Assembly: GCA_963726255.1 (NCBI GenBank)
Contig: CAVSBL010000002.1
Span: 448,001-512,000, forward strand
Direction: 5' to 3'
Length of the DNA: 64,000 nt
Origin: Candidatus Bathyarchaeota archaeon
GTDB taxonomy: Archaea; Thermoproteota; Bathyarchaeia; 40CM-2-53-6
Shown: positions 46,167-56,268 of the stretch, piece after piece
How positions within the stretch are numbered: the stretch's first letter is position 1
How the letters are laid out: each line of letters begins with the position of its first letter
Notes under the pieces: generated by a model
What the model was told of the DNA's origin: nothing
Databases searched by the model: none
Seen by the model: the letters and a program-made list of their open reading frames with translations, nothing else
Position numbers and translations under genes: made by a program

Positions 46167-46592
46167 GTGCCAAGACTTGCATTACCTGACAAAGAAACTT
46201 CCAGTCGGATGAGAAAGGTAAGGAGCCGAGGTACCGGTCTTGAGAAAGCAATGCAAGAAATTCTCGAGAGTATAAGCGTGGAATACGAGGCACAACCTAA
46301 TCTGGTTGGGCATCCAGACTTTAGAATAAAGGGAGAAAGAGTTCTGGTCTTTTGCGACAGCTCATTTTGGCACGGCAGACGAAAGGAAGACGTCAGCGGT
46401 CTGACTTTTCACAGAAATAAGGCATTTTGGTCGCGGAAACTTGCCGCTACCAGACGACGAGATCGCATTCTCACTCGAAGGCTAATTGAAGATGGATGGA
46501 CGGTGTTGCGTTTCTGGGATTCAGAGATTCTTCAACGAAGGGATTTTGTTAGAAACAGGCTGAGGAGAGCAGTGCATGCAGAAAACCACTAA
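46167..46592 (+). CDS. vsr: Very-short-patch repair endonuclease
   Basis: MRKVRSRGT, GHPDF, FWHG, GWTVLRFW. Confidence 0.93.
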   Translation: MPRLALPDKETSSRMRKVRSRGTGLEKAMQEILESISVEYEAQPNLVGHPDFRIKGERVLVFCDSSFWHGRRKEDVSGLTFHRNKAFWSRKLAATRRRDRILTRRLIEDGWTVLRFWDSEILQRRDFVRNRLRRAVHAENH

Positions 46593-47676
46593 ACCGCTTA
46601 CCGCAGTTGATGTGTTTTGCGGAGCAGGTGGCTTAACGCTTGGCTTGAAGCAAGCAGGTTTCCACGTAGTGGCTGGGGTCGAGATCAACAAGGAATATGC
46701 GAAAACGTACCTGGCGAATCATCCAGAAGTGAAAGTCTTTACACGAGACGTAAGAGAGGTTAAGGGCAAAGAGATTCTTGAAGCCACTGGGGTCGATTCC
46801 GTAGACCTTCTCGCGGGGTGCCCGCCATGCGAAGGATTCTCGAAACTTACTGACAAGTATCACAGGGATGACCCGAGAAACGAACTTGTTCTAGAGATGG
46901 CTCGGCTAATAGAAGAAATCAAACCCAAAGCTGTGATGATGGAAAATGTAGCGGGTCTAGCTAGAAGGGGAAAGCCGAAACTGGATCAATTCGTAAGGAA
47001 GCTTACCTCATTAGGATATTCTGTGAATTATGACGTGCTGCAATTGGCGAACTACGGTGTTCCGCAATCGCGTCGCAGACTTGTCTTGTTCGCAGGCATG
47101 GGATTCGTGATATTGCCACCAAAGAAAACCAGAGCTTACCGAGAAGATCGTGCCAAGGGGCTGAAACGTTGGATGTGGCTTGAAGATTTCTTGCCCAACC
47201 TTGGAAGGCCAGTAACGCTTTCGAAAGCAATGAAGAACGGTGGGCCGAGAAGGTTCAATTGGCATGTGGTGAGAGACATTGAGGAGATGACGAAAAAGCG
47301 GCTGAGAGCAGTCAAGACTGGCCGTGCTAGAGATTCGCTTCCAAAGGATCTGAGACCTGAGTGCCACACGGATTCGTCTTACGATGGATTCGGAAACGTC
47401 TATGGAAGACTTTCATGGAAGAGCACGCCACCGACGATCACAGGCGGATGTACCACCTTTTGCAAGGGGAGGTTCGGTCACCCAACGCAGTTGAGAACCA
47501 TTTCAGTGCGAGAAGCCGCCCTAATACAGACCTTCCCTCGCACGTATAAGCTCGAGACGGACTGCATGGACATGGTCTGCGATTTAGTCGGCAATGCTTT
47601 CCCTCCGAAGTTCGCGAAGCTTGCTGCAATCGAGTGTTTGAACGTGATTCAAAGTCAGGAGAGGCCTATTCGATGA
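46576..47676 (+). CDS. DNA (cytosine-5)-methyltransferase
   Basis: DVFCGAGG, GCPPCEGFS, ENV, QSRRR, GNAFPP. Confidence 0.95.
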   Translation: MQKTTKPLTAVDVFCGAGGLTLGLKQAGFHVVAGVEINKEYAKTYLANHPEVKVFTRDVREVKGKEILEATGVDSVDLLAGCPPCEGFSKLTDKYHRDDPRNELVLEMARLIEEIKPKAVMMENVAGLARRGKPKLDQFVRKLTSLGYSVNYDVLQLANYGVPQSRRRLVLFAGMGFVILPPKKTRAYREDRAKGLKRWMWLEDFLPNLGRPVTLSKAMKNGGPRRFNWHVVRDIEEMTKKRLRAVKTGRARDSLPKDLRPECHTDSSYDGFGNVYGRLSWKSTPPTITGGCTTFCKGRFGHPTQLRTISVREAALIQTFPRTYKLETDCMDMVCDLVGNAFPPKFAKLAAIECLNVIQSQERPIR

Positions 47677-49559
47677 TTCGAAAATTCACCATGGAATTCG
47701 AACCTGCCACAATAGAGCATTTGGGCTTGAAGCTGTACGTTTCACTACCACCCGTAATTGGTGAATTGGTATCCAATGCGTGGGATGCTGATGCGGAAAA
47801 AGTCGAAGTGAGTTTTCCAAGCGGACCTTTGAACGCAGAATCCGAGGTAATCGTACAAGATTTCGGATCTGGAATGGACGCAGATGAGTTGCAAGACGCC
47901 TATTTGAAAATAGGCAGAAACCGCAGAGAAGTCGACGGATTCGAAATTACTAAGAAATTCAATCGCCCCATAATGGGTCGGAAAGGAATCGGCAAGCTTT
48001 CGGTATTTGGCGTGGCTTCAGAACTTGAGATAAGGAGCATCAAGAATCACAACGCGACTTGTCTGCGGCTGAACTACGATAATATGAAATCTTGGCCGAG
48101 AGGAACGCCGTACGAACCCAAAGTCGTGGAGTCTAGAACTGGTCCGACCGACGAAACAAATGGAACCGAGATCAGAATTAGGGAGCTCCACAGAAAGAAA
48201 GCTATCGAGGCTGACTGGATCCGTCGAGAGCTGGCTAGACGCTACACAGTCATCGGAAACGATTTCAAGGTTTTAGTGAACGGCACCGAGATAACCCCTA
48301 AGGACAGACGACTGCAAGAGGACTGCAGGAAATCTTGGGATGTCGCAGATATCAAAGGAGGCAACGTGATAGACGAATCGGCGGGTTGGAAAGTCGATGG
48401 GTGGATTGGCCTGGTGGCAAAGTCGTCGCAAGTCGATAGAGGAGTTGATGTTTTTGCCAGAGGAAAGGCTGTTGAACTTGAGACGATGTTTGGACTCAAG
48501 ACGACTACGATTCAATTTGCTAGGGCATACGTGGTGGGTGAAATAACTGCAGACTTCCTGGACGCAGCCGAAGACGACATTGCGACAGGAAGAAACTTGG
48601 TTCATTGGGAGTCGGATCGAGGCCAGAAGCTTGCCATTTGGGGGCAGACGGCCCTGAAGTGGGTTTTCAACCAGTGGCTTGACTTGCAACATAAGGAGAA
48701 AGAGGAGAGAGTCATCAGAATAGCTGGATTCAGAGAATGGATGTCTACGAGGACCCCGCGGGAGCAGAAAGTCGCTCAAAAGTTGGTTAATGCAATAGTG
48801 AATGATGAGAACATCGAACCAGAATCAGCTGGGCCGCTCCTCGAAATAGTCAAGACGAATGTGGAGTTTCAAGCCTTTCAGGAATTGGTAGACGAGATTG
48901 AGGAATCCGGAGCCAATGTAGCGACACTGCTCAAGTTATTCCAGGACTGGCGCGTTATCGAGGCCCGTGAATACTTACGACTTGCCGATGGACGACTGGA
49001 GATAATGGAGAAACTCTCCGAACACATCGAAAAGGGCGCAATGGAAGTCAAACAGATTCAGCCCCTGTTCGAAGAGCACGGCTGGCTGGTCGACCCAAGC
49101 TGGAAAAACGTTTCCGGTCAAACGCGATATACAAAGCTCTTGCGGGAGAACTGCGCAGAGCCCAAGGCGCTCGACGAAAAAGACAGAAGGATAGACATTC
49201 TAGGGTACTCTGTGAGCGGTATTCTACATGTCGTGGAATTGAAACGTCCGGATAAAACGCTGGCTCGCGAGGATTTGGAACAGGTTGAGAGATACGTTGA
49301 TTGGGCAAGAGCGAACCTCCTTGGTACGGGCGAAGGAACACCCAACTATGCTCGTGGGTTATTGATTGTCGGGAGATTGAGCAAGGATGCTGCAATTCAA
49401 AGAAAGATGGAAAGACTCGCGGGAGACCACATTTTGGTAGATACTTTCGATGGGCTTCTGGACAGAGCCGAGAAGATCTACGGATTGGACGAACAGACGT
49501 TGCGAAATATAGCCCCAGAATACTCGAAACAAGCTAGAAGAGCTAGGGCAAAAAACTAG
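47673..49559 (+). CDS. GHKL/MORC-type ATPase fused to a C-terminal PD-(D/E)xK nuclease (R-M restriction component)
   Basis: ELVSNAWDA, DFGSGM, GRKGIGK, GTEI; RIDIL..VELKRP; ATG overlaps the MTase stop. Confidence 0.88.
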   Translation: MIRKFTMEFEPATIEHLGLKLYVSLPPVIGELVSNAWDADAEKVEVSFPSGPLNAESEVIVQDFGSGMDADELQDAYLKIGRNRREVDGFEITKKFNRPIMGRKGIGKLSVFGVASELEIRSIKNHNATCLRLNYDNMKSWPRGTPYEPKVVESRTGPTDETNGTEIRIRELHRKKAIEADWIRRELARRYTVIGNDFKVLVNGTEITPKDRRLQEDCRKSWDVADIKGGNVIDESAGWKVDGWIGLVAKSSQVDRGVDVFARGKAVELETMFGLKTTTIQFARAYVVGEITADFLDAAEDDIATGRNLVHWESDRGQKLAIWGQTALKWVFNQWLDLQHKEKEERVIRIAGFREWMSTRTPREQKVAQKLVNAIVNDENIEPESAGPLLEIVKTNVEFQAFQELVDEIEESGANVATLLKLFQDWRVIEAREYLRLADGRLEIMEKLSEHIEKGAMEVKQIQPLFEEHGWLVDPSWKNVSGQTRYTKLLRENCAEPKALDEKDRRIDILGYSVSGILHVVELKRPDKTLAREDLEQVERYVDWARANLLGTGEGTPNYARGLLIVGRLSKDAAIQRKMERLAGDHILVDTFDGLLDRAEKIYGLDEQTLRNIAPEYSKQARRARAKN

Positions 49560-52436: not shown

Positions 52437-52769
52437 CCCCCGGTTGGGCAGCGAGTAGCGCCGAAGGAATAGGCATCGCTCTGTCCTACATGAAGTGACA
52501 ATCAGGCCTCCTCAGGTTTGAGTTGCAATCGATACACCCGTAGATTACCTGCTCCTGAAGCTTCGGCTTTCCATCAGGCCCAAACACATTCATGCGTGCA
52601 ATCTTTGGGTAGGGAGAGTAGAACGGTTTCCTCTTGGAGCAAAATGGGTATTCAATTCAGTGCGCTTCTTCACGTTGAAATCTTATCTTCACGATGTCTG
52701 AAGGTACATCCCACCAACTGCCGGTCTTTTCATTGATCGTATTTATCCATGCGATTCTAGTCTGAAATG

Positions 52770-52921
52770 TGGTGCGGCCGCCGGGATTCGGACCCGGGTT
52801 TCCCCGTTGCTATTATGCAACTTTGAGGCTTGGGAAGCCCCCGTCATAGACCAGGCTGCCCTTCCAACCTCTCCAGGTTGGGAACTGGACCACGGCCTAA
52901 TGGAGCAATCCATGCTCACGC
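52770..52921 (-). tRNA. tRNA-Gly(CCC) with three BHB introns: 52897-52918 (3/4), 52856-52884 (15/16), 52800-52822 (45/46); CCA encoded
   Basis: Spliced sequence GCGGCCG TG GTCC AGCCTGGTCTA TGAC G GGGGC TTCCCAA GCCTC AAAC CCGGG TCCGAAT CCCGG CGGCCGC ACCA; each intron forms a BHB. Confidence 0.9.
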
Positions 52922-53013
52922 ACTCAGAGTCCAGCCACGACGACCGCAAATCGAGAAAGCTCGAGCTCACAATAAAAATCTCCCGACTCCAGCGGAAGAA
53001 ATAGAAGCGTGGA

Positions 53014-54049: not shown

Positions 54050-56268
54050 CTACGCTTCCATGAAGTCTTCTGCCTTTTGTGGTTCAGGTGGTAGGCCCTT
54101 GCGTTCGCGTATGCCCGTGATGACCTGGTTGATCAACGATTGCGGTACAGGTGCCCAGTGGGCGAACTCCAACCCCCAGAATGCCCGGCCTTGAGAAGCG
54201 CCCCGCATAACCTCTGAGAGGTCAAAGCTCTCAGCTGTGGGCAACTCCCCTACTACATAGACGAGGTGCCCGCGCTGGTCTACTGAAACGATTTTCCCAC
54301 GTTTCTGCGAGATTACACTTGTTGCGGCTCCAAGTAGCTCTGGGGGTACCTTCACCGTGATTCTTTGGACTGGTTCCAGCAGAACTGGGTTTGCGCTGAG
54401 GAATGCGACGAAGAATGCCCTTCTACTCATTGGCATGATCTGCGCTGGGCCTCTGTGGACGGGGTCTTCATGGAGTGAAATGTCCGTAACCTTCACCTTC
54501 ACGCCTCGGATTTGCTCATACGCAAGTGGGCCTTCCTTGAGTCCCCAACGGTAACCTGCAATAACCATTTCCTTAACCTCTTGGACGTACTGGGCTCCTT
54601 TCGTCACTTCCACAAGCATGTTGCTCCCTTCGTCAACGCTCCAAACCCCACGGGCTTCGTCGGGGGGCCATCCTTCCTCGCGAAGTATCTTTGCCATTTC
54701 GTGGCGGTCTTGGTATTCTCCAATCTTGCCCTCTTTGAGCATGCTGATTATCTTGTCAGGTAGAGGCTCGACGGAGAGGTAGATCTTGTTGTGTTTGTTT
54801 GGCGATTTGCCTTCCACAGGGCCGGCGGTGCCTCTGATGCTTTCGCGGTAGATTACGATCGGTTTGGAGGTTACGATTTCCAAACCGGTTTTCGTTATCA
54901 GCGTGTTAGCTATTTCCAAGTGCAGTGTGCCCATTCCGGCTATGAGGTACTCGCCGGTTTCTTCGTTGATCTTCGTCACGAGGTTTGGGTCTTCGAGGCT
55001 AAGCCTGCGGAGTAGCTCCACGAGCTTAGGAAGGTCCCTGCTGTATTTCGGTTCGACTGCCATCGTAACTACGGGTTCCGTAACGTAATGGACGGCTTCG
55101 AAGGGTGCTATGTCCTTTATCGTCGACAGTGTTTCTCCGGCCTTTGCTGCATCGAGCCCTAGGAGGGCGGGGATGTTGCCAGCGCTTATTGTCCCCACGA
55201 TTTCGCGGTAGGGCCCCATGAATATGCATACTTGCTGAACCCTTTGGTCCACCCTCGCGCCAAGTAGGTGGAAGGTTGATCCTTCCGTGATTGTTCCTGA
55301 GAATAATCTTCCACTGGCAACTACTCCTGCCTGCGGGTCAACCACAATGTTCGTAATCGCCATGACCACGGGACCGTTGTCGTCACAATTCATCATAGCT
55401 TTGCCGACTTCGCTGTCTATGTTCCCCTTCCAAATCTTCGGAATCCGATACTTCTGTGCCACATGTGGCGGGGGCAAATGCTCCACGGCCATGTTGAGGA
55501 TGGCATCGTCAAGCGAGGCCCGCTCTCTTAGTTCGCTTACCTTTTCGTTCAGGTAGGCGTCGACGACATCTGAGAATTTGACATTCTTCTCCTTCGCAAT
55601 TTCCGCGTTGAAACCCCATCGGTCCTTGGCCGAACCCATGGCTACAGTGTTGGTTGCGAAGCTTACCTTCCATATCTCACGGTACTCGGGCTCAGCGTAG
55701 AGCTCGATGAGGCGGTTAAACTCGGTGATTATGCGCCCGATTCTCTCCTGAATCTGCTCGGGGGACAGTCTCAATTCCTTGATGAGGCGGTCAATCTTGT
55801 TAATGTAAAGCAAAGGCCGAACACGTTCCTCAAGCGCCTGCCTCGTCACCGTCTCCGTCTGAACCATAATCTCCTCAACAGAATCCACAACTACAACTGC
55901 GCCGTCAATCGCCCTAAGCGAGCGAGTCACTCTTCCTGAGAAGTCAACGTGGCCGGGGGTGTCGATTAGGTTGATGACGTAGGGGGTACCATTCCTCTCA
56001 TGGAGTAGGCTCACGTTCGCGGCCTTGATGGTCATCTGCCGCTTTTGCTCTTCTTCCATGTAGTCTAGGGCTAGTGCTGTCCCAGCCATGCCTGGTGACA
56101 GAAGGCCAGCAGCCGCAAGGAGGGAGTCGCTCATCGTCGTCTTGCCGTGGTCGACGTGGGCGATTATACCCATATCTTCCGGACGCAGCAACTAGGCTAC
56201 GTCATTCGGATTTGGTCCTTGTTAGCTATGATCCTCTGTATTTCCGTCGTAGATTTGTAACGGGGCAT
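54050..56268 (-). CDS. fusA: Elongation factor EF-2; exon 1 56205-56268, exon 2 54050-56175 (729 aa spliced)
   Basis: AHVDHGKT, DTPGH, NKID, diphthamide loop HEDPVHRGPAQ; the N-terminus MPRYKSTTEIQRIIANKDQIR-N joins only after intron removal. Confidence 0.95.
56176..56204 (-). other. 29-nt BHB-type pre-mRNA intron in EF-2
   Basis: A TCCG AA|T GACGTAGC CTAGTT GCTGCGTC CGGA AG|A T; contains an in-frame TAG. Confidence 0.88.

Follow-up and report, generated by a model that had tools for sequence, protein, structure and literature searches.

Introduction

Archaeal transfer RNA (tRNA) genes with several introns are described from the Thermoproteales, where up to three introns per gene occur (PMC4033280, PMC4090602, PMC8450103, PMC3218864); in the passages of these papers at hand, the introns are short, lie at non-canonical positions and are bounded by relaxed bulge-helix-bulge (BHB) motifs that are built partly from exon sequence. 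The available part of a 2026 preprint on Asgard archaea gives a mean of 2.2 intervening sequences per tRNA gene in some families. A third related system is that of the split and permuted tRNAs of Nanoarchaeum equitans, Caldivirga and Thermofilum pendens, in which sequence outside the mature tRNA pairs with tRNA sequence to build the structure needed for processing; for T. pendens, an unusually distant promoter is reported as the clue to an unusual gene. Here we describe a tRNA-Gly(CCC) gene, probably with three non-canonical introns and with a conserved 5′ leader, in a stretch of 64,000 nucleotides (nt) from a Candidatus Bathyarchaeota archaeon (contig CAVSBL010000002.1, positions 448,001 to 512,000), hereafter called the window.

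The gene resembles the multiple-intron genes of the Thermoproteales, as far as the passages cited above describe them, in its short introns, their positions, the relaxed and partly exon-built motifs and the number of three per gene, and also in that plain covariance models miss it and that its host appears to have an EndA endonuclease of the heterotetramer type. In contrast to them, the host is not a hyperthermophilic crenarchaeon but belongs to the Bathyarchaeia of mesophilic habitats. With the Asgard tRNAs it shares, on the available part of the preprint, a tRNA set in which most genes are interrupted, many D-arm inserts that annotation misses, boundaries capable of forming a BHB, and lineage-specific gains; the phylum is a different one, and Bathyarchaeia are mentioned 0 times in that part of the text. 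As in T. pendens, the putative promoter is distant, a TATA-like box standing 50-57 nt upstream of the tRNA; in addition, leader and tRNA 3′ end are complementary to each other. Unlike in the split and permuted genes, everything lies in cis and in normal order: the mature parts are not at separate loci, their order is not permuted, the leader holds no mature sequence and pairs with the 3′ acceptor strand, and there is no second transcript. A literature search found by title or abstract no paper describing tRNA introns of Bathyarchaeia, most subscription journals lying outside that search. The three-intron kind of gene is already known, and introns of the leader-dependent kind are anticipated in the field; the lineage, seemingly undescribed in this respect, and the conserved leader seem to be the new details.

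In silico removal of three introns yields a complete tRNA-Gly(CCC)

The gene is located on the minus strand, from 52921 down to 52770, as four colinear exons spread over 152 nt of one strand (Table 1); the strand is not given in the sequence-only reading. A sequence-only reading of the window had proposed that removing segments of 22, 29 and 23 nt at tRNA positions 3/4, 15/16 and 45/46 gives a full cloverleaf with an encoded CCA, and it does: 78 nt remain, which ARAGORN calls tRNA-Gly(ccc) with a score of 116.3. The cloverleaf, read by eye from the ARAGORN drawing, has a perfect acceptor stem of 7 base pairs (bp) including C2-G71 and G3-C70, a D stem of 3 bp plus a C13.U22 mismatch, an anticodon stem of 5 bp with one G.U, and a variable region of 4 nt, and the 3′ part carries the T loop TCCGAAT, with C at position 55, followed by A73 and the CCA end. 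Archaeal tRNA-Gly has as its identity elements the anticodon NCC, C2-G71, G3-C70 and the discriminator A73, and all of these are found in the spliced cloverleaf. That reading had also noted that standard scanners can miss such genes. ARAGORN made zero tRNA calls on the unspliced DNA of the whole window, no Rfam match was obtained in the window at gathering scores, and the Rfam tRNA model in a permissive search gave on the unspliced gene a single misaligned match of 18.6 bits (threshold 29).

To control for chance, the upstream 272 nt were shuffled 25 times with dinucleotides preserved, and each shuffle was searched in the same way, with removal of up to three BHB-like segments. Of the 25, none reached a score of 110, and two gave scores of 101-103. 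Because of this result, and because the arrangement recurs in 38 distinct related sequences, it exceeds what chance would produce. A strict form of the search solved only 16 of the 32 CCA-anchored tRNA 3′ ends of the genome, scores of about 101-108 falling within the shuffle noise, and failed on relatives with two introns; it was therefore used for the window gene only, and the related loci were parsed directly.

We consider the locus to be the organism's only tRNA-Gly(CCC) gene, functional and interrupted by three non-canonical BHB introns, with a probability of about 0.85. This reading is supported by the in silico splicing, the conservation, the covariation, the pattern of variation at the boundaries and the presence of the enzyme genes. 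As to its being the only such gene, which the sequence-only reading had suggested should be checked, a search of the genome for a second Gly(CCC) anticodon arm with up to 2 mismatches gave none.

Conservation of the gene in relatives

Of the 22 other species of the genus, 18 gave a long match in a DNA search of 41 related genomes, as did one species of a sister genus; the four genus members lacking such a match are 75-89% complete. The three-intron gene is complete in 17 of the 18 matching species, which together with the window copy makes 18 sequences, all of which splice in silico to Gly(ccc) with ARAGORN scores of 114.8-120.9. These 18 sequences contain 5 distinct mature forms, with 9 variable positions, versus 16, 18 and 17 distinct sequences of introns 1, 2 and 3, respectively.

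A pattern scan of metagenome contigs, anchored on motifs of exons 2 to 4, provided at least 80 further loci, and the 80 listed were parsed together with the 19 loci of the genus. Of these 99, 46 hold a complete three-intron gene (38 distinct versions), 49 have an uninterrupted 5′ acceptor strand, three are cut off or unparsed, including a chance match outside any tRNA (L159), and one (L015) lacks the 5′ part. Every one of the 38 distinct versions, hereafter the orthologs, is called Gly(ccc) by ARAGORN after in silico splicing. They reduce to only 8 distinct mature sequences, versus 31 distinct sequences for intron 1 (18-24 nt), 37 for intron 2 (19-33 nt) and 35 for intron 3 (20-25 nt). Decay of the copy in relatives had been named in advance as the finding that would speak against a functional gene, and what is seen is its retention in these 38 versions.

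Three bulge-helix-bulge motifs of the HBh′ kind

The helices and bulges listed for the three introns in the sequence-only reading are all present exactly in the sequence. Motif 1 (at 3/4) consists of the helix AGTG/CATT with the bulges CG^T and AG^G (the caret marks the exon-intron boundary), motif 2 (at 15/16) of GTCC/GGGC with AG^T and AG^C, and motif 3 (at 45/46) of CCTC/GGGG with AA^A and AA^A. Helix 1 is formed, as had also been noted, by leader positions -3 to -1 plus G1, and it is fully paired in 38 of 38 orthologs, as is helix 2; for helix 3 the count is 32 of 38. An inner (h′) helix is found in every motif, with 5, 1+6 and 5 pairs in the window copy. All three motifs are of the HBh′ kind and not of the full hBHBh′ kind, and the HBh′ relaxed form is counted among the canonical BHB classes in the available part of the 2026 Asgard preprint.

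The spacing of two 3-nt bulges on opposite strands is exact in 38 of 38 orthologs for each of the three introns. Within the 5′ bulges, the two exon nucleotides are invariant or nearly so and the third, intronic nucleotide varies, as for the first nucleotide of intron 1, which stands beside an invariant exon CG and is T in 10, A in 27 and G in 1 of the 38; within the 3′ bulges the first two nucleotides vary and the third is constant. Judged from the aligned orthologs, this pattern is the signature of exon-intron junctions.

The helices show compensatory changes. Helix 1 occurs as AGTG/CACT, as the wobble forms AGTG/CATT and AGTG/CGCT, as AGCG/CGCT with both sides changed (two sequences) and as AATG/CATT (one sequence), and in helix 2 the invariant exon strand GTCC stands opposite GGGC, GGAT or GGAC. 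In the inner helix of intron 1 the first two pairs are formed in 38 of 38 and the third in 34 of 38, and 2-4 pair types are found per position in that of intron 2. For the inner helix of intron 3, GCTGC/GCAGC and GTTGT/ACAAC are covarying forms of GTTGC/GCAAC, the second pair being T-A in 22 and C-G in 12 of the 38, and the fifth C-G in 27 and T-A in 4. The RNAalifold consensus contains helix 1, the T stem and, of the inner helices, those of introns 1 and 3. No resemblance was noticed by eye among the three introns, nor between intron 3 and the intron at the same position of the tRNA-Gly(GCC) gene described below.

Table 1. Positions of the gene parts, the upstream elements and the neighbouring features in the window
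Feature	Position	Strand	Remark
TATA-like box TTTTTATT	52971..52978	-	50-57 nt upstream of tRNA position 1; TTTA core invariant in the 18 aligned orthologs
Leader block 1, GCGGTCG	52941..52947	-	near-copy of the 5′ acceptor strand; starts 23 nt after the box
Leader block 2, GGCTGG	52931..52936	-	nearly invariant in orthologs
Last 9 nt of leader	52922..52930	-	positions -3 to -1 (AGT, 52924-52922) give three of the four helix 1 pairs
Exon 1, tRNA positions 1-3 (GCG)	52919..52921	-	CG in 5′ bulge invariant in 38/38
Intron 1 at 3/4, 22 nt	52897..52918	-	inner hairpin GAGCA/TGCTC; CATT strand of central helix
Exon 2, tRNA positions 4-15	52885..52896	-	identical in every ortholog, not counting the metagenome set, where it was a search anchor
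Intron 2 at 15/16, 29 nt	52856..52884	-	central helix with D-stem positions 10-13
Exon 3, tRNA positions 16-45	52823..52855	-	anticodon CCC at 52834-52832
Intron 3 at 45/46, 23 nt	52800..52822	-	central helix with anticodon-stem positions 40-43
Exon 4, positions 46-73 plus CCA	52770..52799	-	T loop TCCGAAT, C55 at 52791
Sequence just 3′ of CCA	52740..52769	-	
Elongation factor 2 gene	54050..56191	-	
C-5 cytosine DNA methylase and HATPase_c_3 protein genes	46576..49559	+	

Observations against the reading and the length of the variable region

Several observations weigh against three BHB introns in a functional gene. An outer (exon-side, h) helix of at least 2 bp was read in none of the motifs, each having one possible pair, and helix 3 contains one C.A mismatch in 6 of the 38 orthologs. 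The minimum free energy (MFE) structure of the single sequence contains the intron hairpins only and does not reproduce the full motifs, and RNAalifold misses central helix 2 and central helix 3, for which there are competing pairings. That the second and third BHBs compete with the D and anticodon stems had been pointed out from the sequence, and the two helices indeed use tRNA positions 10-13 and 40-43, so that the cloverleaf would form only after splicing, because each of these motifs takes one strand of a cloverleaf stem. Since exon motifs served as anchors in the metagenome scan, that set cannot show how frequently exons 2 to 4 diverge; in the 18 genome-derived sequences the contrast between exons and introns is free of this bias at exons 1 and 4. 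The sequencing runs listed as holding the locus include no RNA runs. In one genome of the genus (G003), the copy L015 keeps the 3′ half of intron 1 and everything downstream, with an A27.C43 mismatch read by eye, and exon 1, the leader and the promoter box are missing; the missing part was not found elsewhere in that 78%-complete assembly, either with an 86-nt query or with a degenerate pattern. One candidate for this 5′ piece was rejected, as it resembles coding sequence and has no promoter box. Candidate explanations of L015 are a pseudogene, a rearrangement, a split gene and an error of assembly. Finally, ARAGORN also accepts the 101-nt product of removing introns 1 and 2 only, and gives it a score of 119.2 versus 116.3 for the 78-nt product.

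This last result would suit a class-II-like tRNA-Gly of 101 nt with two introns, in which the 23-nt insert at 45/46 stays in the mature tRNA as a long variable arm, and the conserved covarying hairpin within the insert is what such an arm would also have. We nevertheless find this very improbable. The four nucleotides after the hairpin are complementary to positions 40-43 (fully in 32 of the 38 orthologs) and are followed by exactly three nucleotides of which only the third is constant, and orthologs without the insert have a 4-nt variable region (read by eye), equal to that of the spliced product of the window gene. A paralog gives a parallel case. The tRNA-Gly(GCC) gene of the same genome, at C2:2185881-2186009 outside the window, appears by eye to have two introns, of which the first interrupts the 5′ strand of the anticodon stem and the second lies at 45/46; the second shares the position of intron 3 of Gly(CCC) and is unrelated to it in sequence, and its strand GAAG lies opposite CTTC of its own anticodon stem (read by eye), so that this insert follows the anticodon stem of its own gene. 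Removal of the 45/46 insert from the Gly(GCC) ortholog of another genome (G008) gives an ARAGORN score of 123.8. Excision of the 23-nt segment as intron 3 remains our preferred reading.

Position 55 and the functionality of the gene

In the T loop of tRNAs, U54, U55 and C56 are conserved and U55 is converted to pseudouridine, according to the passage at hand of PMC7912444. The gene departs from this core in having C55, as had been seen from the sequence; U54 and C56 are present. The orthologs have C55 in 33 and T in 5 of the 38, and C55 is found at 3 of the 32 CCA-anchored tRNA 3′ ends of the genome. One of these belongs to the tRNA-Gly(TCC) gene (C2:925550-925644, outside the window), which has one non-canonical intron and whose last 30 nt, C55 included, are identical to those of Gly(CCC). 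The third 3′ end with C55 lies at C2:28315-28342 of the window's genome (G000) and has the T loop TCCAAAT. Judged from this distribution, C55 is a fixed trait of the lineage and not damage.

A decaying or non-functional relic, with GGG codons read through wobble by tRNA-Gly(TCC), would account for the loss of the conserved U55, for the C13.U22 mismatch in the D stem, and for L015 with its missing 5′ part and A27.C43 mismatch, and the Gly(TCC) gene that it requires does exist. It would not account for a mature sequence held to 8 forms in 38 versions with introns that nearly all differ, nor for the conserved promoter box and leader, and C55 is the majority state and is common to the Gly(TCC) gene. 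We therefore regard decay as extremely improbable and the gene as functional.

With regard to the Gly(TCC) gene, a partial copy of its 3′ end, with 3 mismatches in 29 nt, is located 3.2 kb downstream at C2:928849-928877 and may be a trace left by the integration of an element at the tRNA.

A conserved leader that resembles the acceptor strand

The sequence-only reading had noted a box about 50 nt upstream of the tRNA, consistent with a leader, and the TATA-like box is found there (Table 1). From the geometry of archaeal promoters we take it to be the promoter. The first 23 nt after the box vary between species and are followed by the conserved blocks GCGGYYG and GGCTGG, with a linker of variable sequence and length between them. 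The leader is 26 nt long, block 1 being located about at the expected transcription start.

Block 1 can pair with the 3′ acceptor strand with one G.U. Among distinct upstream regions, 38 of 41 of the interrupted type but 0 of 42 of the uninterrupted type contain a 7-mer with this property (no more than one G.U), the exceptions among the 41 being L015, L135, which has one mismatch, and the non-tRNA locus L159. Because the interrupted type has a single origin, these 38 count as one event. Both the MFE structure and RNAalifold pair block 1 with positions 66-73. When the three BHBs are enforced, the best fold has -68.8 kcal/mol and joins the leader to the last ~22 nt of the tRNA; with the first 17 nt of the leader barred from pairing, -48.1 kcal/mol is obtained. 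The predicted duplex of the leader and the 3′ end is the strongest among 31 tRNA genes of the genome (-33.6 kcal/mol, the next being -23.8 and the median near -14). Its mean over the 38 orthologs is -27.2 kcal/mol, and it exceeds that of shuffled leaders (z below -2) in only 17 of the 38, three leaders being mis-parsed. A local hairpin of blocks 1 and 2 is also predicted in nearly all lineages, at a weak -4.7 to -6.4 kcal/mol; alternatively block 2 is predicted to pair, within the duplex of leader and 3′ end, with nucleotides of the T loop and T stem. Covariation cannot separate the hairpin from the duplex, because the partner strands are invariant and every change in the leader is a C/T change opposite G. 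On these models the leader is more than a passive spacer, since it is conserved and its pairing with the 3′ end is predicted.

The similarity of block 1 to the acceptor strand also allows another 5′ exon to be drawn, in which leader nucleotides 52947-52940 are tRNA positions 1-8, a single 48-nt intron lies at 8/9 and the GCG of motif 1 is unused. Its helix would be GGTC/GGCC with the bulges GT^C and GT^G, which fits the hBH form with two outer pairs (read by eye). The 5′ acceptor strand is found intact 78-190 nt upstream in 30 of the 32 CCA-anchored tRNA genes, and here the only stretch fully complementary to the 3′ strand is the leader block, which lies 178 nt from the 3′ end and begins at the expected transcription start; in three related species C6 changes to T together with a G to A change in the proposed partner. 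The orthologs make this exon improbable all the same. Position 8 would then vary (T in 27, A in 9, C in 1 and one mis-parse among the 38), whereas U8 is invariant in the three-intron model, and L179 has a C.A mismatch in the helix and L135 has A7 opposite C66. In addition, it leaves unexplained why an invariant CG stands beside a variable nucleotide in the first bulge, why both sides of helix 1 change in AGCG/CGCT, and why GCG joined to GCCG restores the exact acceptor strand of the other two Gly genes and of the uninterrupted orthologs. The arrangement with GCG as exon 1 and the block as part of the leader is thus preferred. Two related arrangements were tried and rejected. If the leader were mature sequence as far as position 24, A14 and the D stem would be missing and the linker would not be conserved (read by eye); a splice at 7/8 from the block has no helix of suitable geometry.

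In the clade of the window, the leader agrees with the 5′ end of the gene itself at 19 of 24 aligned positions, a score attained by 2 of 1000 shuffles; in another clade it is unlike the gene's 5′ end beyond block 1. The leader may have arisen by partial duplication of the 5′ end of the gene. A possible but doubtful role for it is that of a stand-in for the interrupted 5′ strand, pairing with the 3′ acceptor strand and part of the T arm until splicing. It would then protect and organise the 3′ end while the 5′ strand is split by the 3/4 intron, and would stay attached until the EndA cut. Once splicing has restored the perfectly matching 5′ strand, this strand would displace the leader, and only then would RNase P act.

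An exact 7-nt copy of the 5′ acceptor strand is also found in the leaders of two further tRNA genes, with 3′ ends at C2:1127883 (plus strand) and C2:667336 (minus strand), where it starts 20 and 12 nt, respectively, before the true strand; that of the C2:667336 gene lies about at the expected transcription start. In total, 3 of 31 tRNA genes of the genome have such a leader versus 13 of 868 mismatched control pairs of gene and strand, and the acceptor-copy leader could be a wider trait of these archaea.

Host, processing enzymes and proposed pathway

The host belongs to the Bathyarchaeia and not to the Thermoproteales: the elongation factor 2 encoded by the adjoining gene has its closest relatives, 75-95% identical, in metagenome-assembled genomes of Candidatus Bathyarchaeia/Bathyarchaeota. 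By their labels, the DNA sequencing runs containing the locus come from freshwater sediment, wetland, soil and peat.

Two EndA paralogs exceed the Pfam cut-off in the genome. The first aligns over its whole length with the catalytic subunits of archaeal endonucleases of solved structure (E 7.7e-41) and has retained the Tyr, His and Lys of the catalytic triad. The second is more distant, with no His seen at the aligned place; it fits a structural subunit and hence an enzyme of the two-subunit type, which would be a heterotetramer. Reviews, in the passages at hand, tie this type of EndA to non-canonical introns (PMC4090602, PMC4033280). RtcB (571 bits) and the archaeal RNase P RNA (173.6 bits) are also present. 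At the level of genes, the genome thus has both the endonuclease, as two paralogs, and the ligase needed for relaxed BHB splicing.

From the anatomy, the conservation, the covariation and the enzyme genes we infer transcription, the cuts and their order as follows. A precursor of ~178 nt, comprising the 26-nt leader, four exons and three short introns, would be transcribed from the TATA-type promoter. Each intron would fold with the exon upstream of it, or in the case of intron 1 with the leader, into a relaxed HBh′ motif; the broad-specificity two-subunit EndA would cut both bulges of each motif, and RtcB would join the exons. The geometry suggests that the 3/4 intron leaves before RNase P acts, because helix 1 consists of leader positions -3 to -1 and G1 and would be destroyed by the RNase P cut.

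History of the introns

The 49 loci with an uninterrupted acceptor strand, which include the sister-genus copy L020, all have a 15/16 insert with a fully paired central helix, and after its removal ARAGORN gives Gly(ccc) in 49 of 49. An anticodon-loop intron of 12-17 nt is present in 48 of them. The distribution indicates that the 15/16 intron is the older and widely shared one, and that the 3/4 and 45/46 introns belong only to this genus-level group, in which the anticodon-loop intron is absent.

Apparent interruption of the tRNA set

In the genome, which is 98.5% complete, the Rfam tRNA model finds 17 genes above threshold. In the 41 genomes of the order that were searched (that of the window and 40 relatives), matches at E 1e-5 or better number 5-15 per genome within the genus and 7-27 in the other 16 genomes. 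ARAGORN reports two uninterrupted tRNAs in the genome and mislabels its Gly(GCC) gene as Gln(ctg). An intact acceptor strand lies 93-190 nt from the 3′ end in 29 of 30 genes, versus 78 nt in one uninterrupted gene. With so few Rfam tRNAs and such distant acceptor strands, the whole tRNA set of the order appears to be heavily interrupted.

At C2:134670-134697, a T arm, acceptor strand and CCA are nearly identical to those of a tRNA 1 kb upstream (3′ end at 133669), and no matching 5′ acceptor strand was found within 400 nt. This may be a tRNA 3′ fragment or a gene whose acceptor stem is interrupted.

Neighbourhood of the gene

Just 3′ of the CCA, two unrelated conserved sequences are distributed patchily across lineages (seen in L002, L003, L008, L012, L015, L017, L153, L171, L173, L183, L190 and L193). 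The first type resembles TCAGACTAGAATC...ATGGATAAATA of the window and is single-copy in the genome; the second is the palindrome TCTAGACATTAAT.TCTAGA, found once elsewhere in the genome, at C2:371350. They may be the ends of elements inserted beside the tRNA. No integrase or other mobile-element marker was found on the neighbouring open reading frames with PHROGs and Pfam. At ~3 kb on the 3′ side of the tRNA, a C-5 cytosine DNA methylase gene overlaps the start of the gene of a 641-amino-acid HATPase_c_3 protein (phrog_6203, E 2e-109), and the pair looks like a restriction or defence module.

Discussion

The Gly(CCC) family would provide a dated natural series of introns, with the 15/16 intron shared, the anticodon-loop intron in the sister lineages, and the 3/4 and 45/46 introns at the level of the genus. 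If C55 is fixed as the orthologs indicate, this would be a natural tRNA unable to carry pseudouridine 55.

The conserved, acceptor-mimicking leader was unexpected and is the part most worth experiment. With a splicing motif that depends on the leader, and a leader that mimics the acceptor strand, the order of end-processing and splicing becomes directly testable.

For the lineage, the Gly(CCC) decoder and apparently most of the tRNA set escape both ARAGORN and the Rfam tRNA model. Genome quality estimates that count tRNAs, and inferences on codon reading, would therefore be wrong for Bathyarchaeia unless intron-aware tools are used.

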